The position numbers and the translations under genes are program-made. Positions 1 through 64,000 of a stretch of DNA of 64,000 nt are shown here, in pieces. Within the stretch, counting starts at the first letter, position 1, and each line of letters starts with the position of its first letter. The DNA lies in NCBI GenBank assembly GCA_965178125.1, contig OZ237747.1, positions 744,001 through 808,000 on the forward strand. The letters run 5' to 3'. This stretch comes from Bilabrum cf. latius. Taxonomy: Eukaryota. The notes under the pieces are model-generated. The model worked only from the letters and a program-made list of their open reading frames with translations, was not told the origin of the DNA and did not search any database.

Positions 1-2909
1 GAACCGGGCACAGACACAGACCCGGACGGTCGTCTCGAGCCAAGCTAGCTGCCGCGAGTGGCACTCCGGCGGCGCGCTGACGCCTTGGGAGCCATAAGTC
101 TAGCCTTCTGCCGACTGTCGGCCGGCGCAGTAGCTACAGATGCCTTGCCTGTGACGCCAATGCGGCCGACTCTGCCTGTGGCAACAAGAGGATCGGGCAC
201 GCTGGCCGACGGACCACGCGCGCTGAGGCGGGCACGACTGCTCTGCTTGGATGTCCTAGATGCCTGCGACCTCTTACTGCTGCCTCCTGCGCTCCTTGCA
301 ACGGACGCCACGGATCGCGCCTTTCTTTGCGATGATGATGATGCTCGACTGGCTCCGCCGACCGACCCAGCTCTGCTCCTCCTCGCCGCGCTGCTCACGG
401 ACCCAGACCTGCTCTTTGACGCAACGGGTAGGCCACTGCTGCTTTTCGAAGCCTTCCGCCTGCTTGCTACTGAGCCGGACTTGCGCGATGCATTGCTAAG
501 GCTGCTCCGCCGCGGTGGAACTGAACTTGTCCGGTTCCTGCTGCCTCGCGAAGAGCTAGCTGATACCCTGCTGCTAGAGACCGCTTTGGAATGGAGCGGC
601 GGTCTGCTGCTGGATCGGTTCACGGTTCCTGCCCCTGCATGCTTCAGACCCGTTTCTTCGTCCGAAAAGGAGGCGCTCCTACCTCTCCCACTTTCACCGC
701 TGCCACTGCTCGGCGAGCTCAAGGCGGAGGCAGCACCTCGGACGGCCCACCCGCCGAGCTCGAGGTCACGGCTGTCACCCTGCAGGTCGTCCTCGTCCTG
801 CTTCTCGTCCTGTCGTGCATCGTGTTGGCTACCCTGCAACCCGTGACGTGTCTCGTCACCTGCCCCGATCGGCGCGTCGCCCGATCTAGCGCCCATGTCT
901 GGGATAGGCAAGTCGGGCCGCTGGCGAATCAGCAAACCTGGCGGGATGCCAGAGCTGTCTGAGGACTGCCCAGGCGAGGAACGCAAAGACACAAAGTGGG
1001 AAGGCTCCGCAGAGGCTGGCACAAGACCGCTCAGCGCATCTCTCGCGACATCAACCTCTTGCCTGTCATTTGCAGGGCTGGTCGCGTGCTGGGACTTGAC
1101 GTTTGCACTTTCTGGGGATGACTGCTGCTCACTCTTCGCTTGTTGCGAGCTACCATCCGCTAGAGCTGGTGGAGTACCAGTATCAGAATTACTGGGCCTG
1201 CCTAGGCTGCCGTCAGCATCAGCACCGTGCTAGCGGTCACTACCAGGGGAAGCATCCTCCTCCTGCTCGTGCTCCTGCAGCTGCTGAAAGGGCGAATCGC
1301 AAGCAAATCCAGAGGCAGCCGCTAGAGCAATGCGAGCTCTTTCTGCGTCAGATAGGAGCCGCCGACCAGCCGGTGACTCGGCTCCAGGCCCGGCAACGGA
1401 TGCTGACGCTCGCCTGGACCTCTGCTTGTGGGAGTTCTGTGTTTGTGCCTTGCTGCCATGACTTGGTGCCGCGCGGGGTTGCTTTGGTGATACAGTAGCC
1501 TTCAACCACAGCTGTTCCTGTCGGCTTACCGATTTCCGGCTTTTTTTGGATTGCTTTCCGCTGCTTATCCGGCTACGGACGGATGTGGAGAGGCTGTGGC
1601 TCCTTGCTTGTCTCGCCACCCTGCTGTCCTTCCGGCCTGCGACAGACGACGAATCTCCGTCTGATTTCTTGCTCTTTGACCTGCTTGAGATGCTCCTGTG
1701 GCTATTTGTTTCATTGATGATGCCAACGGGGAAGCCGCCAGGTCCCAGTTCCGGTGACTTGTGGCTGCCACGCGCGCTGCCATCCACACGCATGCCCCTG
1801 CGGCTGCCTCTGCGACCGCTGCCACTGCCACTGCCGCTGCTTGCCGTGCTCCTCTCACCTCCGCTGCCGCCATTGCTCCCTCCAGTCGACGGTGCACTGC
1901 TGCCACCGCCACGGCTGACGGCCCCGCCGCTCTGTCCTCCGCCCTACGCGGAGGCAGCAGCAGCCGAGCCAACGCTCGCACCACCGTGCTGAGGCAGACC
2001 CGCCACCGCTGCACGGACGGAGGCAGGATGCGGAGGCCTGCTCTGGCTATGAGCGTCATCGATTCGAGAGTCCCAACTCGGAGCACTTGGCGCCTACGCG
2101 TTCCCCCTGCAGTGCGATGCACCTGACGCACTGCCGGCCATCGGTGCCGCGGCCAGCAGGGCTCCAGCCTCCTGGCCGCTGCTAGAGGACCCCGCCGACT
2201 GCCCCGCTGGAAACACGCCACTTTGGGCTGAATACGCTTCTGGTGGAACGGTGGCTGGTGGTGTCATGCTTTGATCGTTGTGTGCCTGCTGTCCTCGTTG
2301 CTGTGCGAGCAGGGCGGCCTCCTGCTCGGTCAACGCACCTCGCTCAGGCACTTGCCCGCCGTGTAGGCTTGGGACTCCCTCTTGCTGCTATAACTACACA
2401 TGCAGTGCCTCGCCGGCGTACGATGCAGCAGAGCGGGTGTCTTCGTCGAATGCACGCTGAACTTCACCCCCCCGCTCCGGGCTGGCCCGCCTCGAATTCG
2501 GAGGAGGGGCGAATGTGCGCTCGTACCGCCGATCTCCGGCCCTCCATGCTTCATCAGGTAGCATAGGACCCGATAATGACGCAAATTTTGAACCGTGCGA
2601 CCTTGCAGAGTGCCCCAAACGCCGTGCTAGAGCTCGGCGGTTTCGTTCTGACTGAAGCTGATCCGACAAATTTACTCGGGCGGATACGTGAGGCCAATCG
2701 CTCAACAACACAGCAGTAGCAAACTGCTCTGAATTCAGGTCAATGCCTGTATCAACCTCGTACTTGTCACTAGGGGCGTCTTGGCGTGCAAGTGCGGTTT
2801 CCACTGCAAGATCTAGTTCATCTCTTTCCATGTCAATCACGCCATTCTATGTGACATTATCACCTATTGCCTGTGCAACTCTGCTATCGAGGGAAGATGG
2901 GCTGTTCAT
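1..2909 (-). CDS. Hypothetical low-complexity Ser/Arg/Gly-rich protein, 3' end outside the window (TAG=Gln)
   Basis: ORFs 2394-2840, 2094-2351, 1230-1793 and 45-1022 share one frame and are separated only by TAG (2847, 2394, 2388, 2094, 1944, 1230, 45). The first ATG after an upstream TGA is at 2909 (MNSPSSLDSRVAQ). One TAG pair lies in a Gln run: V-TAG-L-TAG-CAG-CAA-E. Confidence 0.7.
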
Positions 2910-3007
2910 GATAAATGTTCGATATCACGGTTTCAACGAATGGAAATCCGAATTTCCGCCCGCCAAAAGACTCGTTACAAGTACCCCGATCTTGCCGGGT
3001 GTCCGAC

Positions 3008-6000
3008 ATGCATGTGCAGCAAGAACGCCTGGTTTGGGACTATTACGTCAAGGAATTCGGGTAGGCTACAAGTGCAGTCCGCGACATCACTCATTGTGTG
3101 CTCGACGCAATTCGCGACCTCAAAAGCTCGACGGGAACCTCGGCTGACCGAGAGGCTGCAGGGCAAGCGGTTACGCAGGCCGTGTCCTCCGTCAAACTGC
3201 TTCTGCAAGGATGTTTCACGGCAGCAGCCGAGACTGTTACAGGCCGACAAATGGCAAACACCGGCCAGGCCGGGCACGTAGAAGCGTCACGCAAGCGCCA
3301 CCGCAGGACCTGGGCGGCACGGACGAGATGGGCTGAAACGTGGGGAAAAGCCCATGCCAGCCTCAAGGCCCTTATCGCGGGACCAACCACGGAACAAGCT
3401 CTTTCAGAGGCCAGAACATGCTTGGCTGCACATCGCCGAGCCAGCCTGCGCCTCGAAGGGCGACAGCGGGGGCTAGATGGACGGATGCAGGCAACACTCT
3501 GGGGGAGCACAGAGGTGAACCAGTAGGCCAATGAGGGACAGGAGTACTGGACGATGCTCCTTGCCAACCTGGACCATGATCGACGGGCTGTTTTCGAGAC
3601 CACCGAGCGAGGGGCACGCAGGACGGGCCACGCACTGCGGAACATGCTGGGAACAGCAAGTCCGAGGGAAGCCCACCGATAGATCGCTGATGCAATCTCT
3701 AGAAGGCAACGAGCTGCACCAGGACTGGAACCAATCACGAACCTAGGCGGAGAGGTGCTTACGGCCGTCGAGGATATCCTAGAGGCACACGCACAGCAGC
3801 TCTCTCACGCAGGTGGGAATGGAAGTGCGGATGTGGGCGGATTTATGGCCAGGATTGCGCCGCACATGCCCAGGGCAGCGACACCGCTCAACCTATTCTG
3901 CAGGTCGAACGCAGAGGTGGATCAAGCACTGGACAAGCTCAAGCACAACAAAGCTGTGGGACCTGATGGGATCAGGGCGGAATTGCTGACCAAATGCTAG
4001 CCATGCTCTGAGGAGGACGGGTGTCTGCGGCGAAGTGACGCTCTGTTGGACCTCCTCAGGGCCATTTATAATCTCACACTCTTCTCGGGGATTCAGCCTG
4101 AGGCCTTTCAGGAGGGGTTCATGCGGCCGGTCTCCAAGCGCAAGCAGGGCACAGGAGTCACAGGAGTCGACGAATTCAGGCCAATATGCTGGACCTCGGC
4201 TCTCTCGAAGGTCGTAAGCACCATCGCAAACCAGAAGGTCATGTGGTACTGCGAAAACCACGGACTCTTCGGCCAGGATTAGGCCGGATTTCGCATCGGC
4301 AAGAACTGCCAGCAGGCCTACTCAGCGGTGATGGAATGGATTACCCAACGAAGGGGTGCTGGAGGTTTTCTGGTATTCTTTGACATCAAAGGAGCATTTG
4401 ACAGTTGCAAGTGGAACATCATCGAGGCCATCATGACGGAGCAAGGATGGGGACGCCAGACGGTCCGCTTTCTCATGGCCCGCATGCAGGTGGCCATCCG
4501 CGTTCGAGACCCACTCACCAGGAGGGTCTCTACCAGAGTGCAGAAGACGGCGGGCACCCCCTAGGGCGAGATTCTGTCTCCCACCATCTTCCTGGTACTG
4601 ATGGGGGTTCTCCTGGAAACGCTGCGGAAAGAGAGGCTCCAGCACGGGCACCATCAAAGGATCGTGACCGACACCGGACGATACGTTGAATGTGGACAAG
4701 TCGGGTACGCAGACGACTACGTGGCACTGACGTCGAACTGGAACGAAGCAGTGGCGGTCATGAAGCTAGTCAAGAGCCTGTTTGCACTTGCGGGCATGTA
4801 GCTGGGAATCAAGCCCCTGACAGCATCGGGCCAGGGAACCAAGACAGCGATCATGGCCTTTGGCTACGCTCGGGACTCAATTCCTGGGGACATGCCAGAG
4901 GGCGTCGCATGCAGAGCAGCGGACGCGGGAGAGACGGATGGGGAGTGGACCATCCCACTTGCCTCATCCTACCTGTACCTCGGTCTACTCATTTCGACCC
5001 AACCAGTACGGATCAGCCCAGATGAAGTAGCTGGGCTGACGCAGGCGAGAGACATCTGGGTAATTGATATGGCACCCCACGTACGCAGGAGGATTGCGAT
5101 GGCGTACCGGGCGGCCAGGGACATCACACGAGCGGCGGTGAACGGCAACTGGGCGGTCTCCCTGCACGCCCAGCTGCTCCATGCAGGAGCAATCACGAGT
5201 GCATTCTACGGAGCAGAGGCAGCGGCATGTGCAACAGGATGGGACACCTTGTCAGGATTAGGATATGGTTCCCAAGTTTTCTACGGGATGGAACTGAACC
5301 TGGAAGTCCTCAAGATGCTGGACAAATTCCTGCTAGATACGCGCTGGATGATTGTCAGCGGATCGACACAGGTAAGGCCCTTCACCATGGGCGGCCGATA
5401 CGTGCCAAACCTTGCGATGGACACTGAGCTGCTGACGGCATCGGCAGCAGGGCGTGTTGCTATGGGCCTGCTGGACCTGATCGAGTGTCCCTCGAAGAAG
5501 GGCCTTGATGTTGCGGCCAGGTTCATCCACCAGGGCCGATTCCTGCAGGGACCACCAGTACAGACAGGCCCACTCGGGGCCGCGCTGGCACTGGGATTCA
5601 GGATCAAGATGGCAGGGTGGACCCACCGGATCGATGACGCGAAGGACTGGCTGGGATGCCAGGAGACTGCAAAAAAAGTCACAAAGTGGAGGAAATCCAA
5701 ATCCGGAGCTGCTGACCGATCGTTCACAAGCCTGAGCCTGGGATGCTCGCACGATCCGGCACTGTCGGATTGGGACCGGGAGAGAGCTGCGCTCGGAGTG
5801 GTCATGCTTAACCGGTACGCAACGAAGGGACGGTATGCCTTCGGACCAGGAGCCATGCCAACAGCAGCGGTGGTGCAGGAATACGGCCACCAAGGAAGAC
5901 GAATTCTGCGCATCCGAGCTGGACAATACCCGCAACAGGGCACGCCCAACCTTCAAGTGATGGGCACCGCGGTAGAGCAGATGGAGCGGGCCGAGCATGA

Positions 6001-6595
6001 CCATCATGCCGGAACGAGACCGTGGCAACCCGATGATGCGGATCAGAATAGAGGGAGGTCCCCTGCCTCTCTCCGGAAAGCATGGGCGAAGACAGCTCTC
6101 GCTCAGGACCCTTGGGACGAGAAGCTGGAGCGCACCAGCAGGGCCAAGCCAATCGTCGAAGACGCACTCACTCGGATAGAGCGTACGATTGCACGGTCAT
6201 CGGAACGGACAGCTGTCAAGGAGCTGGCCAACCGAGTGGTGCAGGTGATCAGGAACCAGCTGCGCTAGCAGGAGTAGCTGACGTGCAGGCAGTGGATGCG
6301 AGGCGATGCGGCGGCTGCTCTTGCCGCCACGGCCACGCAAGAGCTGATAGCGGCAACCAATGCGAACGCTCGGCTACAGCGACGGATGTTTAAGCCCCAC
6401 GGCTTGCTAAGGGACATAGAGAGGCAATGGGCCAAAGGCATGAGCGCGTGCATGCTAGCCTCTCTGAAGGATCGTGAGACGCAGAGACGGTCATGGAGGA
6501 GGAAATGGTGGGTCCCGGCAGGGGACCCTGATGTGGGACTGGACCGCGCTTTGTGCCGGGCACATGCTCCGCACCTGTATGCTTTCTCCCTGTGA
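3008..6595 (+). CDS. Non-LTR retrotransposon reverse transcriptase (~1,195 aa with TAG=Gln)
   Basis: One frame with 9 in-frame TAG, ending at TGA 6593-6595. Motifs: KAVGPDGI, FRPICWTSALSKV, D(TAG)AGFR, FFDIKGAFDS, GTP(TAG)GEILSPTIF, YADD, YLYLG. Confidence 0.9.
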
Positions 6596-6866: not shown

Positions 6867-9800
6867 ATGCGGTCATCCCTTCAGCTTCTAACTAGCCTCA
6901 TCGTATCGGTGGGGCTGGCATCCGCAACCATTTCGCTACCGAAGATCTTCGGTGACCACTGTGTGTTGCAGACCAACAACGAGTACGGGGCGAGAAGCTT
7001 CATTTGGGGGCAAGCCGAGCCAGGCGAGCTAGTTACGCTTAAACTCAGCTCCGATACCTATCAGTCGCTTGCAGATGCTAAGGACGGAACTTGGAGCGTG
7101 CAGTTGAACCCAGGGCGAGGGACGGCAACTCACACTGTAACAGTCACGGGCTCAGTTAGCACGAATACCGTTCAACTCAACGATGTTGTCTTCGGAGACG
7201 TTATCCTTGTGTCTGGCCAAGTAAGTAATAGCTGTACCTCTGAAGCACTGCAATTGCACACTGACTTCTGCTTGCGTACGACGCCCTACGCAACAGCGAT
7301 CCTTTCGCCGGACCATTTCTCCGCCCGCAGTCAAACTCCGTATTTCCCGTGACCAACATGTTCGGAAGAGACGAGATCCTTGCGAAGGCAAATGACCCGA
7401 AGATCCGCCTGTTTAACGCCGCGATGAACTACGCCGAGCAGCCGCAGTACGACCTCAAGAACGGGACGTGCGGCTGGTACAGGAACTCGACCTGCAACAA
7501 GTGGCAGCTGTCGACACCGGAGGTCGCTAGGGACTTTAGCGCCATCGGATTTACTACGGCTCTCAACTGGAAGCAGATCTTTGAGGGAGACGGGTACATC
7601 GGCGTCATCGAGTCCGCAGTCGGCGGAACCCCCGTCTAGGACTGGATGCCGGCTGCCGCTTTCAAGTAGTGCCCTGGCTCCAACGAAGAGGCGGAGCACG
7701 CCAAGGAGACACTCCCGCGCATGGCCAAGCCCTGGCTAGGACACGCAGAGCACGACACCATCGCACCGGGCAAGGACGCCCGCGCGTACAACAAGCTGCT
7801 GAAGCGCAGCCCCCTCGCAAACGAAGTCGGCCCAGTGGCCGGCCGCGCCGCCGCCATGCAAGAACACGTCCTGCCACTTGTGCAGGCGGGCGACATGGAA
7901 GCTGCTGCTGCAGCCGAGGAGGAGGTCGCAGCGCAGTTCGGTGCAGGCGACAAGGACTCCCAGCTGTACAACGCCATGATTGCACCCATCGCTGGGTACA
8001 GCATCCGGTATGCTCTCTGGTACCAGGGCGAGCGCAACGCGGCCGAGGGCACTGGCGAGGCGCTATATTCGTGCTACTTTGGCGCCATGATCGAGCAATG
8101 GCGCAGAGCTTGGGGGATCGGCGACTACGCCTTCGTCTACGCTCAGCTGGCCCCGGTGCTGGCAACCTCCAACTTCACGTCGATCCGTTTGGCCCAGGAC
8201 GACGACAGGGCCAAGAAGGGCGGGCGGATGTCTACCACCGGCATGGCGGTGACCATCGACCTCGGCGACAAGTCCTCCCCCTACGGCTCCGTGCACTCGA
8301 GGAACAAGACCGAGGTGGGACGCAGGCTCGCACTGCAGGCCCTTTGGGCCCAGCGCGCAATCCTGCCCCCCCAGAACAACTTCAGCAGCCCTTTGACCCT
8401 GGGACCCGCGGTGCAGACCGGCAATGGGGCAGTCAACGTGCCTCTGGACCCTGCCACCCTGTACGGCGGGGCGCCTGCCTTCTTCGGCACGAGCGAGTGC
8501 ACGGAATGCTGTGCGGGCGCCGTCGATCTCTTCCAGGTGACGAGCGACCCCAAGGGGGCCGAGGGGTGGGTGAACGCCACTTCCTTCTCGGTGGGTACTG
8601 ACGGCGCCAGCATCAACGTGGGCGTGCCGTCGACCGACGGGGCATACACGTACGTCCGCTTCTCTGCGCAGAACTACCCCGAGTGCACGCTGCACAACAC
8701 CGAGGGGATCGCCATGGGTCCCTTCATCCAGGCCATCGGCAGCACGGCCAAGGAGCTTCAGCGGGGCATCGGGGAGCAAAAGTAGGCGGAGCGCGCCGCA
8801 ATCCGGGCCAAGGTGTCCAAGACAATCACCCGCAGCAGCGTCGGTATCTCCGAAAACCCCACCCGTGAGTCTTGTGATAACGCACCATAGTGCTGACTGC
8901 ATGGTATGACTGTCCAGTCGTATGCGTCTACTTCTGCTAGATTCAATCTGTCATTTTTTGTTTCGATTTGGTGCCCCACGCAGCTCCTATTGGTCTCAAC
9001 ACCTGGAACCTTGCGTGAGTGCTAGGGGGCGTCCTGGGGGATACTGATACTCCAGTGCTTATCACGTCCTGTTCGGAAGGATATACACGCCCATAGATCT
9101 TGATATTTCCTAGTTTCTCCTAAACGCAGCCACTGTAACACCGGCGAGCAGTACAACGATTTCATTGGACAGGCATTGTACGAGACCGGCCTGTCCCAGG
9201 TGAAGACCATCATCAACGATGACTGCTGGCAGGCTGCCCGCAACTCCACGGGGTTCATCATCCCTGACCCCGCCCGCTTCCCCAACGGCTACGGAGCTGT
9301 TGTGCAGAAGCTCAAAGACTACAAGATCGAGAGCGGCCTGTACACCGCGCGCGGGTGAGAGTTGCTCGAGACCTGCTTTGTGCATCGCATTGCATTGCAT
9401 CACATCGTCCTGCTGCAAGCCCACAATCGAACGACTGTAGGGGCCTGAGTGGCTGCGCATCGTTGCATCTGCGCGAGCTTCATGTGTTCTAATTTGAATG
9501 ATTCTTTCCGCAATGATCGCAGGAGCCGCACGTGCCAGGGCCGCCCCGGGTCCTACAGTTTCGAGGCGCAGGACGCTGCCTACTACTGCGAGATCGGGCT
9601 GACGTTCACCAAGACCGACGCGTGCGGTGGCACCGAGTGGCCGCAGGTAAACACCTCCTGGATCCGCTTCGCTGAGGGCTTCGAGAAGTGCAAGCAGGAG
9701 ACGGGCCGGTCGATCTTCACGTCGGTCGAGTACTGCAAACCCGGGGAGGAATGCCTCGACTGGGTTGGCAACCTGACCAACATGTGGCGGGACACATCCG

Positions 9801-11654: not shown

Positions 11655-14600
11655 TTAAAGCTTGGCCACGCCAGGCGACTTGCCCTTCCTCGCGCCAGCT
11701 CGCATCAACTCCAGCGTCTAGAAGGCGGCGGCCATGGTTTGACTCAACTGGCGTGCATGCCAGTGCACGTGCCCGTGCACCGTTCTTTGGCGGCGATCGA
11801 CCACCCACCGCCGAGGAGAATCATTGCCTCCAGAAGAAGCAGACATGCTCATGTTCTCCAACGAACGAAGCCGGCGCTCCACTGCCTAGCACAGTGCCTT
11901 GTGCATTGCATCGCCCATGGAACCCGGTGGAAACCCCGACCCTTCCCCTATCCTGCCGCGACCGTCAGCTACAAAGACGAATTGCCTCAGTCCGTTCGCC
12001 TTGAGGTCGAGGGCGCCGTGCCGCCGCAGCACGGCCATGGGCAGCTCGCACTAGTCACACTGCAGCACCACGAAGCAGGCGCCGTGGGCCGGGTGCAAAG
12101 ACTCCACCCGGGCCCTGGTCTGGTCCCGCTCGTCACACCACCGCACCAGCATCCTGCTGGCCGCTCGGCTGCTCCGGTCAGCCCCACCGCTTGTTCCGCT
12201 GCCACCGCCTGCTCCGAGACGTTCCACTCGACGAGTCACCACTGGCATCGGGTCTCCACTGGCAGCGATGTCGGTACTTCCCGCCTTCGTAAGCCCTTCA
12301 GCCACGCCATGGCTGGTACTGCCAGCAGCACCTGCTTCATCTCTTTCTTCTCTAGCTTTTACACCCCTTTCTGAGACAGCCTTGCTCGTGCTTGGGTCCG
12401 GAAACAGGCCTTGCTCAGGCTCCACTCCCAGTGCCCTGTCAAGAGTCGTGGCAGCGGGGCGACCACGGGCCAATGGCACGGTACCACCCCTCGGATCCCG
12501 GTAGATGAACGAGGAGGAGGAGGAGGAGGAGGAGGAGGAGCCTGCGCCGCCCTTGTGCCTTGGCACGAACCTCAGGTACTCGGCTGCCGAGTCGAAGCCC
12601 CATCGCACCACTGTGTCTCCCGGACTCGTGCCCAATGATGCCTCTCCGCTAGGCTTGATCATGATATTAGGCCACTGCCATCGGTCGTATCCGACGCAGA
12701 TCCAGCGCGTGCGCCGGTGCAGACGGCACAGATCGCAGCCTTCAATGTCGGCAAGCTGCGATCGGAACCCGCGGTTCGGCCGGATGCATTTTCGTGATGT
12801 ACGTAGCAGCTCGGTGGCTTTCAGTGATGACTACAACCCGCGTCGCATGAGAAGATACGCAATGCATGTCGTCGCTGACCGCGACACCCCGGCCGTGCAA
12901 TGGACGAGCACGGCTCCAGTGCGTCCGTTCCACGCGAGCCCCTCGTCGATGAAGTCGCATACAGCGTGAAAGTGCTGACATATCTACTCGTCAGAAGCAT
13001 CATCCAGCTGCAGCGACAAACAACAGCAGTCATGCGGAAAGAATGGACGACGCCGCAACGAGTTTGTGCGAATTTCACCGTTGCAGGCGATGACATGGGT
13101 TATGCCAAACTTTCTAAAGAACGCAGGATCCCGGGCAGCAAGTGTGCCTGAAATGTAGAGCCTCTCGACGAGAGGTACGCTGTGCATACCAGCAAGCCCG
13201 CTCCATTTGTCTTGCAAAAGCTGCACCAGCTGTGTGGACATCGGCATCTCCTAGGCTTACCCCCGGTTCGCGTCTTCTATCAGAACCATTTCTTCGGCCT
13301 AGACGAAAGAAGCGACGGCACCTAGGGCTAGTCTGGCTCTCGTTGTTGCCAGAGGCGCGCTCTGCTTGTCTTCCGGTTTATTGCTCTGGCAGCGGGCAAG
13401 CCACGGCGCAGCAGCGACCATTTCCGATGCGTCGCACTGGTCCGCCCATTCACGCTATCGGCCACTGCTACTCGCCCTATGAATCGCGGCTGCGAGAGCG
13501 TCACCAGCCACCCGCCCCATGGCCGCTTCGAGGCCGTCACCAGCTCGTGGACTGCCCTGCCCTTCCCTAGTGCAAACAGGCCCGGATGCGCGAGCAATTG
13601 CATGTGCGAATCGTGCTGGTGGTACCAGCTTAGCCTACATTCCCAAAGGAGCTGTGCCGCCATTGGGAGCGCCTACTGCGGCAGAGCTGGCGGCGGAAGC
13701 TCCACAAGGCGTGCTAGGCGCCGTTGCTGGACCATCGACGCTTGCGCTCGCGCCCTCGGTGACCTAACCATTGATCCGATCCCACGATTGATCCACGTCG
13801 TCATCGCCCCACCCGCCCCCTCCACCCTCCTCCCAGTGCACCGTCCTCGATCCCCACGTCCTGCCCCACCCGGTCGCCTCCGACCGCCTGGCTCGCAGCT
13901 GATCCACGGCGCCTGCCGCGAATTGATCCACGGCGCCCAGCGCATCCAGCCGCCTGGACTTCCTACTTCCGGTTTTGCTTCCCCGCCCGACGGGCGCAGC
14001 TGCTTCGAAGGCGCCCGCGACGGCGTTCAGCTGTGCCTGCCTCAGCTCCCCAAGGCGCATGCCCATCGGTCCCAAGCACTTGCTCGCCTCACCCACCGGG
14101 GATGCTCCCCCAACTCCAGCTGGTGGATCTGCCCCGCCGCTTGCCAGCAGATTGTCGCTGCTCACTGTGGCTCGAGCACCTGCTCGCAAAAATACCGGAA
14201 GTGGGTGCTCCTCTAGACTGGTCGCTCTCTTGCTCCCCACGTTGGCCGTGGGGCAGCACTCTATGCAAACGCCGTCTCGAACCGCCTGGGCTAGCAAATC
14301 ATCCTGGCGGTGCACGAGTTGGATGCCGTGCCCGATTCGGTCCACGCCCATGGAGAGAGCGAGCGCGAGACCCTCTTGCGATTCTTGCCCGGGCCACTCC
14401 CCTGAGTGCACGGTCAGGCCGATCGCAGGATGCTTCGCGGCTAGTCGCTTGACTGAAGATTCAAACAGATGCAAAGGCCACTTCTGTTCGTCGCCGGCGA
14501 TGTCGAAACCGACGACGGCTGCACCGCCAAGAGGCGAGAGCAGCGCAGCTGCGCGTCCGGGTGCCGCCGACCAGCCACTCCTATTCTGCGTATCAGCGCG

Positions 14601-15140
14601 CGCACCTAGTCCTTGGGTCAAGAGCGCCAATTCGTCTACGTGGCCGGGACCCAGATGGCGCACAGCTGTTACAACGATCCCTGCGCTCGGCAGCTCCGAG
14701 TTGCGGATGCCTGAACGAACTGCTTCGATTGCGTCTTCCTCCGTCAACCGCTCCTAGCCACCCTTTTGCAAGTGACTTCCGTGAGTGTGCAGCGTGGGAC
14801 AGAAGCGCAACTCGGCGTGCTGAACGCCTTGGCTTGCAAGTCGGTTGCACACGCTCCGAGCAGCCTCTTTTAAATCTGATTCTGTCTGTAGAAACTGGCA
14901 CAACCAGTCGAACACGCCGAGGCTTGTTCCCATACTGCGTCTATCTCGACTTCGGACGGCATTGGCAAGCTGCTGAGGACCCTGGATCGCAGCTTCTTCG
15001 AGTTGGGTGTTTCCAGTTGCGCCGTGTGCGAGCCCTTTGATGCGTGACTGCAGCAGGCTTAGAGGAAGAGACCCGTCGAGGTGAAGATGCAGCTCCACTT
15101 TTCTGATGAGCCGGGCCAGACGTTCCCGAACAGCACCCAT
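11655..15140 (-). CDS. Adenosine deaminase + dual-specificity phosphatase + HIT-like domain fusion (~1,134 aa)
   Basis: One frame with an 81-nt intron at 13180-13260 (gtaagc...cacag) and about 10 in-frame TAG. ADA motifs: ELHLHLDGS, GFDIAGDE, HSGE, RIGHG, SSDN. DUSP motifs: LYISG, VLVHCTAGVSRS, IRPNRGF. C-terminal CDLC, CD(TAG)CELPM and HGHVHWHAR. Ends TAA. Confidence 0.75.
12511..12540. repeat. (GAG)10 microsatellite encoding poly-Ser on the minus strand
   Basis: gaggaggag run seen directly, inside the ADA-DUSP-HIT gene. Confidence 0.9.
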
Positions 15141-15313
15141 AGCCGCAATGTTTACAGTTTTCAATCGACGCAGTCATGCAGGAGAGGGAGGACAAATCAA
15201 TCCTCCGGCTCGGGCCTCAATGAATCATTATATGGCCGCCTTATCCAAGGCTAGGCCTACGTGGAAGTAGAAATTGAACATGCACATGTGTATTTTGACA
15301 GTCACACTTCAGA

Positions 15314-34031: not shown

Positions 34032-34413
34032 TCCATAACTTGACACCTTCTGCCTTTTTGGTGCCTATATTCACTGCTGTGCCGCGCATTCCTGCGGGTT
34101 TTGTGGTTTGGGTCTCAATGATGTAGCGCGCACATTTGATATTCCAAAAATTGGCAGCGCAAAACCTGCACTTTTCTAGCGCTTACCTTCGACCTTTAGC
34201 GGTTCTTACGAGCTTATTTCTCAACAAACCGTAAGAAATTATAGTACATAATCGCATCGTATGATAATTTGGGCATTGCTGCGTACATTTGCGGCCAAGA
34301 CTGCAGCCTTGATGTGTTGCATTCGTTTCTGGATCGACGCCGAGAAACTCTCCATCTGCTTGCACTTGCCCTACACAGAGTGGTTCCAAGCAACTTACCG
34401 TAACTTGGAAGCT

Positions 34414-46311: not shown

Positions 46312-46650
46312 GGTGCCGTGGGGCGGCAATACATGATGTGTTTTGAATTCAACTCCAAGTGTGGGCAGATATCCGCAGCGCCGTCGTGCTGCTGATGGTC
46401 ACTTGCCAGTGCACCACAGCCTCTCAGCTCCATCAGGAGCAAGCACTGCCGTGGACCACACTTGGACCTGGATACGGCATGACACGGGGATTGGGCTCTG
46501 GGCCAACTAGGCGGTTCACCAGTCAGCAACTCCGTAGCGTGTCGAATTCAGTGCTTGTTTGCTAGCAATACTTCGCACTTTTTGTGCAAGACTTGTGTGT
46601 ATTTTGAACAGCCACAGCAACGCAATCCGGAATCCGGATGTGAGCCCTGG

Positions 46651-48862: not shown

Positions 48863-49043
48863 GCTACATTTGCTGACTATTGTGCTGTAGAATTCGCTCA
48901 AGCCCTCCCACTGGCAGCGGTTGCAACCTCTCTGGCAGTCAGTTCGTATTTCTGTTTTCATATTGCGAAATTGCAGTATCTTTATCATCAAGATTGTTAT
49001 GTAGGCTGGAAATAAGCGACCACGAGGCGAAATAGGCGCAGCG

Positions 49044-52000: not shown

Positions 52001-52433
52001 GGCGGACGCGAGGGCCAGGGCCTAGGAGGCCATGGCAGCTGTGGGTGCCGGGGGGACAAAGGCCAAGTTCTCGCAGGAGCTCGGAATCAACGAGTATCCC
52101 AAAGCGGCCAGAGCCAAGGCCTTGCGATAGGAGACGATCCAGAACATTGCGGAGTGGTTCGGGTGCGGGGTGATCAACACAGGCATATACGTGCCTCTAG
52201 GAAGGAAACCTCCTACCGGAGAGCGGCCGCTCACTCTAGTGATCGAGGGAGAGAGCGAGATCAACGTCCGCAGGGCTCGAGCGGAGCTTAGGCGACTGCT
52301 TGATGAGGCGACCGAGGCTGTGGACGCAGAGAGGTTTTCTCTCGAGTCGGCGCTTGCGGGTGGGAACGGCATGGCAGGGAGCGGCTCTGCTGGTGGCGCC
52401 TTGGCTGAGCTTGGGCAAGGGTACGGCACGTGA
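49044..52433 (+). CDS. DDX46: DEAD-box RNA helicase DDX46/Prp5 (~1,129 aa)
   Basis: Motifs [24 protein letters not shown](TAG)[21 protein letters not shown](TAG)[25 protein letters not shown]-terminal Prp5 KH-like region ELGINEYP ... [11 protein letters not shown]. About 9 in-frame TAG. Ends TGA. Confidence 0.93.
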
Positions 52434-52608
52434 TACTTGAGCATTGAGATATGGTGACAAGATGGAATTGATGAATTTTGTGCAGTAGCATTAAAAAAGC
52501 AAGATTCTAGCTGTCAGTTTGCGATCAAAATGAGCTATCTCGAACCTTGCGACCCACAGTTGCACGGCCCTGTGAACACCAGCCGAGAATCTCGGATCAT
52601 AGTCAAAA

Positions 52609-55600
52609 TCAATCCATGTCATCATTATCATCGAACTCGTCCTCAGACTCACCCTTCCCTGCCCCGGCCTCGAGGCTTGTGCCACCTGAAGCAGCGCCTG
52701 CCGAGCGCACCACAGGTTGCAAGTACTCCTGCTGCTGAGCCCTCGTCACACTGGATACCACCACCAACCTACTCTCCTCCTCGCGGATCAACGTCAGCTT
52801 CACCTGCCGCAAGGCGTCGTGTAGCCCAGCCTCAGCCCCCCGCTGCGCTGCCGTGGCCGGTGGCAATGGAGCGGCCTGCTGCAACTCATCGCACTTCACA
52901 CGCCCCATCTGCACCTGGCATGCTGGCAGCACTCCATCAGCCTTGGCCTGAGCAACACCCCTGATCTTCCGCAGCAGCTCGTTGAATACCTCCTCGCTCC
53001 CGTCTGCCAGACAGACCTCTCGCATGGCCCGCAGGCACTGCACTGCCCTCGCGTGCTGCGCTGGGTCGCGGGCCAGGTACGCCACCACGCCCACCATACC
53101 GCACAGCGCGGCGCCGAGGTGGTCCTTGTCCTTCCTTGCGACCATCTTGCGCATGTCTCCGATCGGATCAACTGGCCCCACCCGATCCACCAGTGGGTGG
53201 TCAGCACTAGCGCCTCTCCCCTTAATCCTCGCGCCTGCCAGCACGGCCTGCTGCTGCTCGCTCACAGCACCTCCGAGGCCCACCAGCTCGAACACAGCAT
53301 CGCCTGCAGCGTCCACACGGGCTCTCTTCTCGGCGCTGGGACCCGCACCTGCAGCGGCTGGTTCTCCGGCTGTTCCCTTGCCGGCGCCGCCGTCGGCACC
53401 TGCAGCGGCTGCCAGCCCTGCCATTTCCGCCCTCCTCTTCTTGCCAAGCAGGCCAGCCGCTCCCCCCGCAGCAGCGCCCGCACCGACACTCGCGGCAGTA
53501 GCCGCGGCTGCCCTGGATGCGCCCAACCCTGTGCCCGCATCGCGTCTCTCAAGCGGGAAAACTCTGACAAACTGCTGGAGCGCCGCTTGCTGCCGCCTTA
53601 CGATCGCCCTGGGCATCTCTAGCTGCTCTCGGACGCTCGAGTGAAGCTCTCGGAGAGGCGCATGGGGGTTCATGAGGCGATCCAAAACAGTTTTATTGAC
53701 CCTATTATTTACTGGGTTGAGCTACAGCTCGGGGAGCAGGGCTTCCTCGGTGGCACCGCCGGCACCACTTCTGGCCGCACGTTGCTCTCCTTCTTGCCCC
53801 ACCTCCCCAACGGGCACGTTCATCAGGTCCATCGAGTCCACCAGTGCAAGGGCAGCCTCCTCCTGCTCAGTAGTGGGAAAAGCGTCGGGCTACGTGTCAA
53901 AAGGGTGAAACCTGTAGTCCCTGAAGTCCTCCTCGCAGGGCAGCTGGTTGAAGAAGAGGCAGTCGTACGGCGGGTCATCTGCGAAGGCCGTCCGCGTCTC
54001 GGCCCTGCCCGTGGATTCGGCCGAGGCGGCGGCGGAGGCGGGGCACAGGTGCGGGGTCAGGCAGCCCAGCCTTGGGGTCGCGCCCTTTACCTTGATGAAG
54101 CGCACGAGGGCCACGGCGTCCTGCTCGTGCAGAGCCCTTGACAGAGAAGAGAGGGCTCTGCAGGAGGCCGTGCTCTCTGGGTCAGGCACGATGGCGTCCA
54201 CTGTGCCCATGAAGTGGTGCCGAGGAACGTTCGCTCGGGGAATAAACCTGATGACCCGGAGGCTCTTGAAGCCCTTGATGGTCATTTCCTCGCACTGGCA
54301 CTCCTACATCTGCACCACGTCCGTCCCGAACTGGAATGCGGAAATCTTGTCCTTCCTATCCACCGGCTCGTGGGTGTCGGCAGTCACTTTCTTGCACTTG
54401 CGCTTGACTTCAACCAAGTGAACCCATGCAGCAGTATCAATTGCGCGCCCACTTCTATCTTCATTCAAGTCCTCGTCCCCGCCCTCGGTGGCGTCATGGT
54501 TCATGTCATCTTCATCTTCATCTTCATTGGCGGCTGTCCGATTCCCGTCCCAGTCGTAGCCAGCACAAGGCAAAACACACTTCACGGAGGGCCGGGTCTA
54601 CCCCTAGGTGAAGGCGAATGCCATCACCTTGATCTTGATGTCCCCAGCAATGTCCAGATCGCCAGCAAAGGTCCTCGCCACTTTTTTGGTCCTGCCTTGT
54701 ACCCTGGAAACCACCTCGATGGCGCGGCTGGCAGGCAGCACGTGACCCCCTACGAGCCTGGCGAAGGTGGCGATGGCCGCTTCATTGCGTCGCTTTGAGT
54801 CGAGCATCGCGGGGTCTAGCCTCATCGACTGCGGGTGTACGGCAGCTGCAGCACAGGATGACGACGACGATGCAGAAAATGGCGAACATGAGGAACTGCT
54901 AGCGCTGCTGCTGCTGCTAGCCATACCAGCCGCTGGAGCGCCCCGTTCGGCAGCGCCTGCGCCCACGCAGGCGTCCGCGCCTCCGAAGTCCACTCCAATC
55001 ACGTCAAGCGCAATTTTGTCTCTCCTCATAGTGCGAACCAAAGCGTCCATCACCATAGTGTGCGGATCGATTCTATCGTCGCTATTTCCACCATCGGATC
55101 CACTACTTGAGTCAGAATCTGAGTCACTGTCTAGCTCCATGTGCTGGCTAGCGGCACCTCCCGCGGCTTGGCTTCCGTCTGTTTGGCCACAGCCTTCCGC
55201 GGCTGCTCCTCCAGCATCGGGCACTGGTGGCGCGAGGGTTTCCCCAACAGCGTCTGTAATCATCATGATTCGAATGTGGTGCTTATTCGGCTTCTTGTTT
55301 GGTGGCTGGCGGATTGCCCTGGCGATACCATAGCATACGACGAGAGCGTCTTGGAAATTCCCGTGCTGAGTCTGTTGCTAGTGCTTACGGAGGGCGGCCA
55401 GGGCATGCAGGTGCCGAACGCCAGGTTTCTACCTTTCTGGTTGCAGCACTTTTACGTGTTGATACTGATCGACTATGCCATTGGCTGCAAACTCATCCGC
55501 AATTGCATTGTGAGTATCTGCGCTTTAGGGCGAGTCGGATTTGATAAATAGGTACAACCGTCAAATCTCGAGAGCTCAATGTAAGCGAATATGCTATTCG

Positions 55601-55805
55601 TAGATTATTAGCAAGACTAGAAGGGTTAACCGACGGTTCTCTCACCGTCAGTTCCGAAAGTGACGATGGTGATCGTGTCTTCCTTGTATTCGCTTGATAT
55701 CTTCTACATGATTAGCATTTCCACACCTTCGAGGACTTGCTGTAATTTCCTGCCATACATTGACCGTCCAACGTCTATGGCAAGGATGAATGCCTCAGCT
55801 GCCAT
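52609..55805 (-). CDS. KU80: Ku80 (XRCC5) DNA end-binding protein
   Basis: Exons 55646-55805 and 52609-55517. vWA start AFILAIDVGRSM ... LIM(TAG)KI ... IVTFGTD|DTHN ... DQYQHV ... NFQDALVV. Core FQFGTDVV, ALSSLSRAL, QLPCEEDFRDYRF. C-terminal VGPVDPIGD ... FNELL and acidic tail DDMD. About 8 in-frame TAG. Ends TGA. Confidence 0.9.
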
Positions 55806-56581: not shown

Positions 56582-59500
56582 TCACATCGTGAACGAGGTG
56601 CCCAGTACCTCCACAAGCAGCTCCTCCGTGCGCACCGTGTCCTCCCTACCACTCGGCCCGGTGCACCCAGGCAGCAACGCCTCCCGCTCGTCCAGCCTCA
56701 GCTCGAACCCGGCGGACTCGATCGCGTTGGCGGCCGAGTCCAGGGTGATGAGGCCTCGGCTCGGGCGGCCGTACAGGCTGAGCACCCGCCGCAGCTGCGC
56801 TCCTCTGAACCGGAAGAATTTCCTCAGGCGCTCGAGCACTTGTTCCCTGGTGGTGCCCCCGGCGACGGTCTGGCCTGCGGGTGGCGGCATGGGCCCCTCC
56901 TCGGGGTCAACTGCCACCCCGTTCTCGTCCGCGAAGGCCGTCTTGGGCTTGTGAGGTGCCATGGGCGAGGAGGACACGCCGATGGGCAGGCGGGCGCGGT
57001 CTGCCCTCGCTGCTGCAGCGTACCAATCGGCCTCGCTTTCATTCGCAGGGTCCTCTCCATCATCGTCGTCGACGTCCTCCACCTTGATGTCGCTGGCATC
57101 CACCGTCCTCTCCGCGTCCTCTGCCTCTGCATCCCTCACGCTCTCCCTCGCCAGCACCCCCCTGAATCCCTCCCTCCTGTCCCTGTACGCAGCCACCTCC
57201 TTCTCGTTGAAGGGATCCAGGCCCCATGCAGAGCCCCTGGGCCGGTGCTCGTACACCTCGGGGGCAGTGCCGGCGCCGTCCTCCAGAGGCTTGCCGATCC
57301 CGGCCACGAACCGGATGTACTCCTCAACTTCCTCGGGCTCCACCGAACCGTCCTCCGCGCCGAGCAGCGTCTCGACAAACCCGCGCCAGGACACCGCGGG
57401 CCCCGAGTACCCGCCCTTGCCGTCGATACCCGCCGCTGGGAACCTCTCCATGATGGCCTCCACGTCCTCCTCCTCGAAGCCCACGTCCAGGTGGTGGCGC
57501 CGGAGCAGCATCCTGAACTCGTCACGCGTGATGCAGCCCGGGACCTTGCGGCCCAGCTCGCGGAACAGGCGCCGCGCATGCGTGCGGGACGAGAGCAGGG
57601 ACGATCTAAGCTGCTGGATCACGCGCTCCTCCCGGGCGGTGCGCGTGATGTCCATCTCCTGGGAGCGCGAGAGGGCATCGCAGAGGCTGTCGTAGGCCAC
57701 GCCAAGCACGACCGTGTCGTCGCCTGCATCCGCATTGCCCTGGCCGGGGGATCCACCAGCCGGTGCAGAGTACCTGTGCCGCTGACGGCGCTGCCTCGTC
57801 ACTGCGTGGTCGCTCAAAACCCGAGTGACGTCAGCGTCTTCCACCGCGGGTGGGGCGGCCCCGTAGCTGGCCATCGCGGACAGCGCGTCGTCCAGAGACA
57901 CGAAGCCCTTGCTCATCCTGTCGCTCCGACGCATGTACTACCTGAGGCTTTGCACGCAGCCGAGGAGCACGCGGCCGACGCGGCCCGTGTGCGGTCTCGA
58001 CGCCAGCAGCTGCTGCCGACGGACCGCAGCCGTGGGCTCCGCAGGGGCGCCCTTGCCACGGCTGGAAGAGCCATCGCCGCTCCCTCCTTGGGTGGCGGAG
58101 GCGGCCCGCCCCGCGATCCAGGCGCCCGGCTTGGTCACCACACCCATGGCCATCGCCCGGAACTTGGAGTCCGCTTCGGAGACGGGCAGCTTGGTGGGGT
58201 CCACAGCCTCTTCCCCCATCCCGAGCGAGTCCTGCATGTACTGCCTCGTGAACTCGTCGCAGTCCAGCAGCCGGAAGCGCTGCCCAGGGCTGTGCGCGAA
58301 CTCGATCTCCTCGCCCAGCGCGAAGTCGGAGGCCCTGAAGTGCCTCGGCGGCGGCACGAACCGGGACCGCTCCCGGATCCCCACCCCTCTCGCCCTCGCC
58401 ACCCCGGTGGGGCCAGCCGCCACCCTGTCCTCCTTGGCGAACGCAGTCACGATCTGCCCCTGTCCTGTTCCCTGGTCGTACCCGAACCGGTGACCCATTC
58501 CACCGAACCTTCGCTCCGCCGCACGAAGCTGCGCTGTGGCCGCCTCGCGCCTGGCTGTCGAGGCCAGTGGGTCGGTCGCGATGGCTCGGAGCGTGGACCT
58601 GCCGAGCCCCGCCATCTCCGCCTCCAGCTCCTGGGTCCTGTCGCCAGCCTGCTGCCCGAAGTTGTCCGGCTCCGCGTTCAGGTTTCTGTACCTGCCTCTA
58701 TCCAGGAAGGCCCCCTTCGAGAAGCCGCTGTTGCTGGCCGCTTGCTCGAACACGCTGACCGTGTCGTCCTCGAGATGAAAGTTCACTACAAAGACACGCG
58801 CCTCGTCCGCCACCTCGGCACGAGGACCCACCAGCCGTCCAAGGAACCTCATGACCTTGCCTCCCCTCCTGTACAGCCTCTCGATGTCTTTCTGGTGCCG
58901 GAAGGTGGGCACCAGCTTGTCCATGTTGCGCCTAGTCTCCTCCTCGTCTCCCAGCGCAGCCATCCCGTCGAAGGGAACAACCTCGGGCCTCTTGCCGGCG
59001 TGCTTGGCCCTGTCCCACGGACCTCCCGCTCGACGTGCAGCAGAGGAGACCGGGTCTGCGCTGCCCAGGCCTGCAGAGAGCGCGTGCCGCGCCGAGCCTC
59101 CCATGAATGTGCCGCCAGTCACGGCGGCAGCTGCGGCGACGCCCGCCCTGGCTGCCTTGGATCCGCTCAGCTGGCCCGCGATGTCTCCCCTTGGCCCATC
59201 GGCAGGCGAGCTCTGGTCCACCCCCAGGCTCTCTGCGTACCACTTCTGCGTGAACTCGTCAGCCCGTCGGATGGTGAGTCGCTTGCCATACAGCATGAAG
59301 GTGGTACCCACCCTGAGGAGGTCGGGGGTGACGTGGTCGATGGGCGCGACTGGCACGCCGCGGCTGTCCACCTCGATCTGATGAGCAGCAGCGCCGCCGT
59401 CTGTCTCATGTCCACGTCCGGTGACACTAGCGTACATGGGCATCCCAGTGATCGGAGACACGAACGTGCCAGCCCACGATCCGGGGCCTTTCTTGTAGCC

Positions 59501-61248
59501 ACCTGCGGACCGCTGTTCCCTGGAACGAGGAGGAGTGCTCCCCTTGCCCGGACTGCCACCCGCGGCACCAACCCTGCTCTTCCCACCACCCTTCCCGAAG
59601 TCCTCACCGGGGCTGCCGTCCCCCTCCATTTCCTCCTCCTCCTGTGCGTCTGCCAGACCGGTCCCTGCCACCGGCACGCGCCCCCTGCTCAGCAGCTTGG
59701 CTCCGGCCCCTCTGCCCGCGTTGGTCCCTGTTCTAACCACTGCCTCCATGGTCTCGTCCTCGAGGTAGTAGTGGAGGGCAAGCAGCTGCAGGTCGCCGAA
59801 GGGCCTTCCCCGGTCGTCCCACACGCACTCGAATCGAAGGACCTTCTTGTTGTTCTCGTTGAAGCGCCCCCTCGTGTCTGGTGCCTTGCTGTAGAACCCA
59901 AGGGCGGCGTTCATCTCGAAACCCCGGTCGGTGCCGACCGTGGTGGGCTGTGAGATGGGAGAAATGGATGGATGGGCGAGTGCAACGATAGCCAATGGCT
60001 GCAGGCATTCCTAGATGTCGCTTCGCAAGTTCTCCGATCTAGGACTAGGCTAGCGATAGCTGAGGCATGCAGATAGTTCCAAGGCGCAAATAGAGAGAAA
60101 GGCAATCCGCAGAGACACGTTTCTGCAGCCCTCACGCGAGCGATGTCGTGTGCCTGCATGGTGGGCTCATGGTGCCACGTCGATGGGATGGGTGCGGGCT
60201 CGCCGAATTCCACGCCCTTGTTCTTTGATAGCCAGCGTCGGGTCTGCGATGGGTGAGAGAGATGGTAAGCGCGCGCACGGGGACCGGGCATGGCATTTGG
60301 TGATGCATTTGGTGATGGGCAACGGGTAGGCCAAACACCGTCGTCCGCTTGCAATCAGTCTCATGGTCCAGGCCGTGTGCAGGCGGCATGAAACTTGCAA
60401 GCCCTCTTGAGATTACAATCGCTTCTCACGAATACGTCTGCGTCCGCGACCACGAACTCCCTCCCATGCACGCGGATGGTACCTCCAGCGCTCGCGATGG
60501 CGTCCAGCTTGAGGGGGGCGCCCTCGGCATCCACGGGCCTGTGCCTCTTGGCGAAGTCGCCGCTCCAAAGTCCAGAATTGTCCTCTTCGGGTTCAAATAC
60601 CCGGATGCTGCCGTCTTGCGGAAAGTATTCCAGAGTCATGACGCGCACGCGCTCGCTCTCAAGGTCCGAGTGAAGCACCCGCTCACCGGTGTAAATGAGG
60701 AAACGCAGTCGCTGCGAGCACGGGCAGAAGACTTAATAATGATCATTAGTAATCGGTAGCCCGATAATGTTTCAGATGCTGCGAGACAGACGCCTTGGCT
60801 CACCGTGGATTCCTTGGCGTACTCCATGGCGTTCTGCTCGAACTTGTTGTCCTTCGAAGAGACAAATCTGCGACGAATCTTCTCCCTGGGGTCAGACACA
60901 GGGCTCAATGGTTCCCCTCGGGGGAAAATCAGCGTTGCTTCTCTGTCTTCAGTTCGGACTTGCCCTCGAGAGTCTGTCAAGCCAGACACAGCCTCCGAGC
61001 CTTTCGGGTACTGAAACAGCTAGTCTCGGCGAAAATCAGGTTCCTGCGAATTATCATTATTTGAATGGAAAAGCACCCGGGTTGAGACCTTTGTGCTTCG
61101 ACAAGGATGCGCTAGGACTTGCATTTGGATTCGATCAGGACGTTGCAGCGCTCACTCCTTGCTGATGCAACTTTCGCTCGTATGGGTAGGAACTCATGCT
61201 CATTGTGAGCATCTAAGCTCCAGAAGGAGGTTTTATAGGATCGTACAT
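56582..61248 (-). CDS. EFHC/Rib72-like axonemal protein (three DM10 domains plus EF-hand region)
   Basis: Exons 61156-61248 (start uncertain), 60804-61043, 60430-60711, 60136-60243, 56582-59947, all phase 0. DM10 motifs: EYFPQDGSIRVFEPEEDNSG, HYYLEDETM, NFHLEDDTVSVFE...NSGF. EF-like GCITRDEFRMLL. TAG at 57938 and 61020. Ends TGA. Confidence 0.85.
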
Positions 61249-63329: not shown

Positions 63330-63444
63330 AGCACGGAAAGTCTGCATCTTGCAGTTCGTCGATGAAACGGTCGGCAACTCTTTTCAAAAGTGCACGCTAC
63401 CCTGCACAGTTGCACGTGGGCCAAACTACGGCAACAGCAGGGCC

Positions 63445-64000
63445 ATGTTTGCAGCTCCGCTTTGGTTATCATAGCTAGCAGGTAAAACTACTGGTGTTCT
63501 TGCCCGGCACAAGCAAGGGTTCTTTAATCTGTTTATTGGAACGAGTTGCATCGTCCTATCAGTCCGGAGTATCTCCAAGGAGGTAAGATTCGACTGAGCT
63601 GGAGACTCGTACGCCGTTTAGATTTAAGGAATGCACGATCAATGCGTGCTTCTATCCAATTACCCCGACGCAGCATAAAATTGCCAAGCTAGAGAGACGA
63701 GTAGCCCAACAGAAGGAGGAGGCAGCATACTTGAAGCACCTCCTTTGCGACGATAGCAGCGAATGGTCAAGAAGATTAGGAGGCGACTCACTAAGCGTAA
63801 TTCAGTACATTCGGTCGGGCTTCTAGCTTGCCGAAGCTAGAATTTAGGACGACGGTCGCGCCGTCAAGAGCATAGGATTCGACTACGATCGCGGCCAGAC
63901 GATTGAAGAGAAAGAACTCGTCCCTTCGCGGCCCGCTGGCAGCGCCCTTGGCCTATGGTAGTTGAGTAGCGAGGAGGATGAACAGGCTGGTGCCGTGGAG
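63445..64000 (+). CDS. Hypothetical protein (hydrophobic segment plus coiled coil), 3' partial; absent from the standard-code ORF track
   Basis: Exon 63445-63582 (MFAAPLWLS(TAG)LAGK...FFNLFIGTSCIVLSVRSISKE), intron 63583-63673 (gtaaga...cgcag), exon 63674 to window end open with 3 more TAG. Confidence 0.6.

Follow-up and report, generated by a model that had tools for sequence, protein, structure and literature searches.

Evidence that UAG is read as glutamine, with UAA and UGA kept as stops, in a 64-kb stretch of a GC-rich protist genome

We describe here a stretch of DNA of 64,000 nucleotides (contig OZ237747.1, positions 744,001–808,000, referred to as the window in its entirety and numbered from its first letter) in which the genes appear to use a variant nuclear code where UAG is glutamine (Gln) and UAA and UGA are stops, a reading to which we attach a probability of approximately 0.9. 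The window comes from the nuclear genome of a GC-rich and intron-poor protist, and its GC content varies between 0.56 and 0.68 along the 64 kb. This code had been proposed in a preliminary description of the same DNA, and the reading frames, the Gln columns of protein alignments, the deficit of TAA and the lack of internal TGA all agree with it.

Reading frames and the residue at TAG

Stop-to-stop frames were compared under the standard code and with TAG, TAA or TGA taken as sense. The longest frame under the standard code was 1647 codons, and with TAG as sense the longest frames were 4952, 4019, 1226, 1194, 1194 and 1145 codons. There was no gain when TAA was taken as sense, as the top frame stayed at 1647 codons, and with TGA as sense the top frame was only 1187 codons and many spurious frames lengthened, since TGA outnumbers each of the other stop triplets in this GC-rich sequence. 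Pfam assigns genes to the long TAG-bearing frames, and three long low-complexity proteins are also found among the genes (Table 1). For codon counts we used 13 gene frames totalling 17,675 codons with only TAA and TGA as stops, and with the EFHC frame cut at a 188-base intron, so that two TAGs drop out of it. These frames contain 82 TAGs (77 downstream of the first ATG) together with 607 CAG and 145 CAA codons, with TAG making up approximately 0.46% of codons and 10% of all Gln codons. TAA (3) and TGA (9) are seen solely as last codons and never internally. The same genes read in their two off-frames contain 36 and 54 TAAs and 247 and 399 TGAs (together 1.6% and 2.6% of codons), and as the off-frames are this rich in both triplets, frames of thousands of codons free of them must be real reading frames rather than the result of chance.

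These counts bear out the earlier figure of roughly 80 in-frame TAGs and the earlier statement that internal TAA and TGA are absent, and the TAGs that had been named individually are in frame (50745 and 50946 in DDX46, 4280 and 4562 in the reverse transcriptase (RT), 55704 in Ku80 exon 1, and 61022–61020). The claim that every gene holds TAG is true of 12 of the 13 frames but not of the 303-codon melibiase frame, which has none, and the tally of ten TGA, two TAA and no TAG at 3' ends was correct for TAG but not for the others, as the 12 complete ends are nine TGA and three TAA.

Which residue TAG stands for is best seen in conserved proteins. The human DDX46 protein aligns with the window protein over approximately 700 residues without gaps across four TAGs, and when the 120 best homologues were aligned with MAFFT, the columns of TAG 50745 and 50946 are Q in 120/120 (both also face Gln in human DDX46 and yeast Dbp2); the two other aligned TAG columns are variable, one of them being mostly gap, M or A. 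A search for homologues of the RT region returned nothing at E 1e-5 and solved structures were compared instead. In these, TAG 4562 lies in the motif G-x-x-Q-G-x-x-L-S-P and faces Q in all four solved RTs (R2, two L1 ORF2p and a group II intron RT), and at TAG 4280, where three of the four aligned, the two L1 ORF2p entries have Q and the group II RT has S. The placement of TAG on conserved Gln in DDX46 and in the RT of a long interspersed nuclear element (LINE), as first suggested, is therefore upheld, but the same suggestion for two further sites is not: TAG 55704 of Ku80 faces Arg in human Ku80 with Gln on either side in a weak match (E 1.2), and no solved structure matched the frame around 61020, whose identity as an EFHC exon was not confirmed. 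Better alignments took the place of these two.

Judged by sequence comparison, the most direct evidence for TAG = Gln is provided by P0124, a protein of 425 residues called from a Logan contig which is 94% identical to the window esterase and has Q, Q, Q and G at the four esterase TAG sites. Its C-terminus is the same residue at which the window esterase ends with TGA. We assume that the protein set which includes P0124 was translated with a standard-type code and that each Q is CAG or CAA, in which case TAG and CAR interchange between near-identical sequences in the manner of synonyms. A Codetta-style likelihood was also calculated for those TAG columns, 11 in all, in which 30 or more homologues align; they come from DDX46, Ku80 and the esterase (with P0124 left out). 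The log-likelihood was -30.0 for Q, -35.8 for S, -36.7 for A and about -40 for K, E and T, with Q leading S by 5.8 nats and with both Leu and Ser well below Gln. As a control, the genes' own CAG/CAA columns were drawn 11 at a time, and 177 of 200 such draws were called correctly; the mean share of Q was 0.257 at TAG columns compared with 0.298 at CAG/CAA columns.

In mechanistic terms, ribosomes read UAG as glutamine and would terminate at UGA (in most genes) and UAA only. A tRNA-Gln(CUA), which is one anticodon base from tRNA-Gln(CUG) and would be charged by glutaminyl-tRNA synthetase, would decode UAG, and eRF1 would have lost recognition of UAG yet kept that of UAA and UGA, or would be outcompeted at UAG. 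Such a tRNA and such a change in eRF1 have their models in suppressor tRNAs and in other lineages with reassigned stops. As a C-to-T change turns CAG into TAG, the two codons would now interchange as synonyms.

Integrity of the sequence and competing explanations

The stretch 48800–55600 is present in runs of four studies, with no RNA run listed among the runs containing it. One of these four studies (X1–X4) may be the source of the assembly, and X5, X6 and X7 are three further studies. When contigs of the runs were placed on 46600–60200, X5 gave a contig over 49140–54000, X7 several short contigs, and X6 three long contigs without gaps, all with 0 differences from the window. Assembly error, which the preliminary description had named as one way in which it could fail, was thus not seen over the genes covered by these three studies (X6 and X7 cover little or nothing of parts of Ku80 and the spacers). 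The first X6 contig extends from 48978 to 52472 (3495 bases) and consists of the DDX46 frame plus 39 bases past its TGA, the second joins 46600–48698 to 48787–48873 with 88 bases skipped, and the third joins 56525–59947 across 59948–60135 with 188 bases skipped. On the minus strand, which is the gene strand, the two skipped parts have GT..AG ends, X1 contigs are colinear through both joints, and removal of the 88 bases brings the exon-1 ATG into frame with the endonuclease. We take X6 to be RNA-derived because of these two base-skipping GT..AG joints, and as the mRNA-like contigs keep 14 TAGs unchanged (10 in DDX46, three in the endonuclease and one in EFHC), complete U-to-C editing is on that reading ruled out. 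Four further X6 joints, with sides of 21–24 letters, were taken as noise. X1 also contains a second contig, approximately 90% identical to the window and of similar depth, which is seen in X7 as well (53011–53133 and 53845–53906); it may come from a second haplotype that has diverged strongly or from a sister strain that occurs alongside, and P0124 may belong to it.

A number of observations weigh against UAG = Gln with UAA and UGA as stops. Gene ends number only 12, with transcript ends known for two to three genes, and in a sample of this size occasional termination at TAG might go unseen. Neither a tRNA-Gln(CUA) nor eRF1 is found in the 64-kb window. The X6 study is labelled 'RNA? (probably DNA)' and its RNA nature is deduced from the two joints, and contigs drop rare variants, so partial editing may occur. 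Several TAG columns favour other residues, including DDX46 aa 1094 (K 80 and R 26 among 120 homologues), esterase aa 125 (E 88 and Q 21 of 120), and Ku80 aa 601 (T in 70/99) and aa 407 (S in 57/142), and Ku80 TAG 53892 reads GAG (Glu) in the second, approximately 90% identical contig. In addition, the TAA at 13259–13257 alone separates the deaminase and dual-specificity phosphatase frames, which share a reading frame, and TAA may occasionally be read. It should be noted that in sequence comparisons the non-Gln TAG sites are variable positions and the Gln codons of the same genes behave alike, and the TAG columns of Ku80 exon 2 are variable. The TAA in question is located inside GGTAAGCC, a sequence similar to the GTAAGCG donor of a proven intron, and a candidate 81-base GT..AG intron would fuse the deaminase and phosphatase frames in frame (window 13120–13290, minus strand). 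This TAA may belong to an intron within an unusual deaminase–phosphatase fusion gene, may close a gene with hardly any spacer to the next, or may be read through.

The code of NCBI table 6, in which both UAA and UAG are Gln and UGA is the sole stop, would be compatible with these data if TAA were scarce only through GC richness. Joint reassignment of UAA and UAG is nearly always the case (in the part of PMC11687900 cited here), the GC content of third codon positions is high with A-ending codons hence rarer, and the frames on either side of the TAA at 13257–13259 share a reading frame and both bear domains. Against this, the CAA/CAG ratio of 145/607 (0.24) predicts 19.6 in-frame TAAs for 82 TAGs if TAA were Gln (the GAA/GAG and AAA/AAG ratios give expectations of the same order), and no more than three are seen, all of them terminal (for three or fewer, P = 4.6e-6). 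There is no internal TAA in the 4952- and 4019-codon frames, AT-richer sequence with additional stops comes after the TAAs which close the 4019-codon and phosphatase frames, and the one doubtful TAA has the donor-like setting and the in-frame intron candidate given above. Two ciliate-like metagenome contigs provide a contrast, as their Ku80 frames show many in-frame TAAs. TAA is a stop and not a sense codon in the window genes, as is TGA, all nine in-frame copies of which are terminal versus the 247 and 399 of the off-frames, and we regard the table 6 code as extremely unlikely. It is also very unlikely that UAG has a dual role as Gln inside genes and as a working stop at some ends, as in karyorelict ciliates, Condylostoma and Blastocrithidia. 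TAG accounts for approximately 23% of off-frame stop triplets, and at that share its absence from 12 ends has a P of about 0.04, a hint rather than proof, and TAG is found within 14 codons of the end in three frames. None of the 12 complete ends needs TAG as a stop, though, and there is no special context, with the base after TAG (A.16, C.30, G.43, T.11) following the same profile as the base after CAG (A.17, C.34, G.39, T.09). The esterase TGA stands two codons after a TAG and P0124 reads through this near-terminal position to end at the window's TGA, and for DDX46 the contig stops 39 bases past the TGA and homology to the human protein extends beyond the last TAG.

That UAG is a sense codon for some residue other than Gln (Glu, Ser, Leu, Tyr, Lys or pyrrolysine) could draw on the columns in which E, S or T prevail (esterase aa 125 and those of Ku80), on the GAG found at one TAG in the haplotype-like second contig, and on the use of UAG for Leu, Ser or Glu in other lineages (part of PMC11687900). 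The invariant Q of the two DDX46 columns and of the RT motif, the Q of P0124 at three of four sites, and the likelihood of Q, which exceeds that of S by 5.8 nats and that of E by 10, make this barely credible, and a special use of the pyrrolysine type is a poor fit to a codon which makes up 0.46% of codons across unrelated genes. We found no point in favour of the TAGs being artefacts, whether assembly errors, U-to-C edited sites, pseudogene lesions or unrecognised introns, beyond the capacity of contigs to mask rare variants. The agreement between the contigs of three studies, the 14 TAGs retained in spliced contigs, the interruption of frames by TAG only and never by TAA or TGA, and the gap-free alignments across TAGs leave artefact with a negligible probability.

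Gene content of the window

The gene frames on which the reading of UAG as Gln is based are listed in Table 1. No tRNA genes were found in the window by ARAGORN, and no Rfam families matched at gathering scores.

Table 1. Gene frames, exons and selected TAG codons of the window (TAA and TGA taken as stops).
Feature	Position	Strand	Characteristics
Low-complexity frame	3..2924	-	7 TAG; runs off window
Non-LTR (long terminal repeat) retrotransposon ORF (open reading frame) with RT domain	2915..6595	+	Pfam RVT_1; 9 TAG; ends TGA
SASA-type carbohydrate esterase	7265..8896	+	Pfam SASA; TAG 7637, 7667, 8783, 8888; ends TGA
Alpha-galactosidase (melibiase) exon, 303 codons	9449..10357	+	No TAG; ends TGA
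Dual-specificity phosphatase	11655..13256	-	Pfam DSPc; 6 TAG; ends TAA
Adenosine deaminase	13257..15173	-	Pfam A_deaminase; 5 TAG; terminal TAA 13259-13257
4952-codon frame with coiled coil, tandem repeats and IQ motifs	15314..30172	-	14 TAG; ends TGA
PHD-finger frame	32514..34031	+	3 TAG; ends TGA
4019-codon frame, secreted or membrane-type repeats	34252..46311	+	12 TAG; ends TAA
tRNA-splicing endonuclease exon 2	46651..48698	-	Pfam tRNA_int_endo; 3 TAG; ends TGA
tRNA-splicing endonuclease exon 1 / intron	48787-48873 / 48699-48786	-	X6 contig splice, GT..AG
DDX46/Prp5 helicase, one exon	48999..52433	+	Pfam DEAD, Helicase_C, KH_12; 10 TAG, 49002 to 52128; ends TGA
DDX46 core TAG, aa 633 of frame	50745..50747	+	
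DDX46 core TAG, aa 700, directly before FSAT motif	50946..50948	+	
Ku80 exon 2	52609..55524	-	Pfam Ku, Ku_PK_bind; human Ku80 match; 7 TAG; ends TGA
Ku80 exon 1 (MAAEAF...FGTDG)	55644..55805	-	TAG 55704-55702; GTGAG donor next
EFHC/Rib72-like main exon	56582..59947	-	Pfam DM10, EF-hand; TAG 57940; ends TGA; intron 59948-60135 upstream

Introns are few and short, with lengths of 88 (48699–48786), 188 (59948–60135) and approximately 120 bases (about 55525–55643), GTAAG or GTGAG donors, CAG acceptors and a GC content of approximately 52%, and the 3' untranslated regions seen are 39 and 57 bases long. Ku80 exon 1 was compared with solved structures and all five matches were to Ku80 (E about 1.2). 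The EFHC main frame matches the EFHC1, EFHC2 and RIB72 structures, and a further DM10-like exon (…LEYFPQDGSIRVFEPEEDNSG…) at 60364–60732 on the minus strand, upstream of the EFHC intron, suggests that the gene has more exons between 60136 and about 61100.

The mRNA-like contig of DDX46 begins at 48978, and the first AUG of the gene (48999) is directly followed by UAG (49002). Read with the standard code, this ORF would be one codon long, and under UAG = Gln the AUG can be the true start (MQAGNK...). The esterase and alpha-galactosidase adjoin on the plus strand (window 7265–10357), and in P0125, a relative of 629 aa with 39% identity, both Pfam domains are found in one protein. The window also contains two giant single-exon genes of 4952 codons (15314–30172, minus strand) and 4019 codons (34252–46311, plus strand) in which no Pfam family was found beyond the IQ motifs. 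Both carry near-perfect tandem protein repeats, consisting of nine units of approximately 55 residues and seven Gly/Pro/Asp-rich units of approximately 29 residues, and the 4019-codon gene further encodes D-x-D-C-D-G repeats rich in Cys, together with EGF-like modules and a membrane anchor at the C-terminus.

Affinity of the organism and known codes

The best named matches of the window DDX46 protein are from stramenopiles (Cafeteria, Chrysoparadoxa, oomycetes, ochrophytes and Mucochytrium) with 42–53% identity, and there is no identical protein in the collection searched. Together with the GC content, this is in keeping with the original impression of a GC-rich genome that does not look like that of a ciliate. 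A quick maximum-likelihood tree of DDX46 only (29 rows) placed the window protein with Cafeteria and an unnamed sequence, with a Shimodaira–Hasegawa-like approximate likelihood ratio test (SH-aLRT) value of 98. The window protein has the longest branch (2.46), the tree carries composition warnings, and as both genomes are GC-rich, attraction is possible. We therefore somewhat favour a stramenopile affinity for the organism from this one gene on a long branch, and are less confident that it is related to the bicosoecids. On the same single-gene placement, the code may be of independent origin.

Fragments of Ku80 in public protein sets hint that the code could be shared more widely among the relatives of this organism. 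P0291 (64% identical) ends in ...CLFFN where the window continues with Q, and P0282 (51% identical) ends in ...GAVTEQ where the window continues with QQ; P0247 continues the same Ku80 gene as P0282, and the two are recorded on contigs of equal length (4052). The third fragment retained, P0244 (78% identity), ends before Glu and not Gln, giving two of three ends before a window Gln, a residue which makes up approximately 5% of the total. P0315 also ends before a window Gln and was dropped, as its 90% cluster holds a complete ORF of 738 residues and its end is probably a contig end. Metagenome contigs were scanned for the DNA of close relatives, with none found in the first scan and only loci at 28–34% identity in the second. 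Among these contigs, L001 (1–2539) and L002 (1–2096) are AT-rich (32% GC) and both have a Ku80 frame with large numbers of TAA and TAG codons in frame, and as such must come from an unrelated organism, probably a ciliate which reads both UAA and UAG as sense.

The code itself is already known, as the preliminary description had noted for Iotanema and a few ciliates. The part of PMC11687900 cited here lists UAG = Gln with UAA kept as a stop (matched by NCBI table 15) for Iotanema spirale, Protocruzia tuzeti, Hartmannula sinica and Trochilia petrani. The nearest parallel is I. spirale (Fornicata, Metamonada), a non-ciliate flagellate which, like the window organism, has UAG = Gln with UAA and UGA as stops (PMC11687900, in the part citing Panek et al. 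2017). Unlike Iotanema, the window DDX46 is nearest to stramenopiles and so points to another supergroup, and the evidence here is 64 kb of GC-rich genomic DNA. H. sinica and T. petrani (Phyllopharyngea) and P. tuzeti also read UAG as Gln, as in the window, and do not use it as a stop (in the window none of the 12 complete ends needs it); in the UAG-only ciliates 58–70% of internal UAGs are at conserved Gln positions (same part of PMC11687900). The C-terminal alignments of these ciliates end almost only at UAA (PMC11687900, same part), whereas in the GC-rich window nine of 12 genes end at TGA.

Other codes differ in the residue or in the fate of UAA. UAG alone is reassigned and UAA kept in an uncultured rhizarian (Leu) and in Scotinosphaera (Ser), as here but with a different residue, and both UAR codons are Gln (table 6) in many ciliates, Hexamita, Streblomastix, ulvophyte algae and Amoeboaphelidium (listed in the same part of PMC11687900). 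The UAR = Gln codes resemble that of the window in that a stop of the UAR pair has been captured by Gln, presumably through variants of the tRNA-Gln anticodon, and are unlike it in that TAA in the window is not sense. Uncoupling of UAG from UAA is rare, with two non-ciliates, one green alga and a handful of ciliates named (in the part of PMC11687900 cited here). In the articles covered by our literature search there was no report of UAG = Gln in a stramenopile nuclear genome. What appears to be new is the lineage, together with the GC-rich setting and the predominance of TGA among the stops. It is possible, at a little under even odds, that this is the first nuclear code change in the stramenopiles, with an independent split of UAG and UAA in a GC-rich and TGA-terminating genome, and it might extend to a wider environmental clade.

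Annotation of this organism or of its metagenome bins with the standard code would split nearly every gene, and the fragments in public protein sets indicate that this already happens. An apparently independent case makes it testable how eRF1 keeps UAA and UGA yet spares UAG, and whether the capture of a stop codon needs AT pressure, as the genome here is 56–68% GC with TGA as the main stop. If true, a GC-rich and TGA-terminating case counters the AT-pressure route usually invoked, and a whole assembly of such an organism would show the changes in eRF1 that part UAG from UAA.

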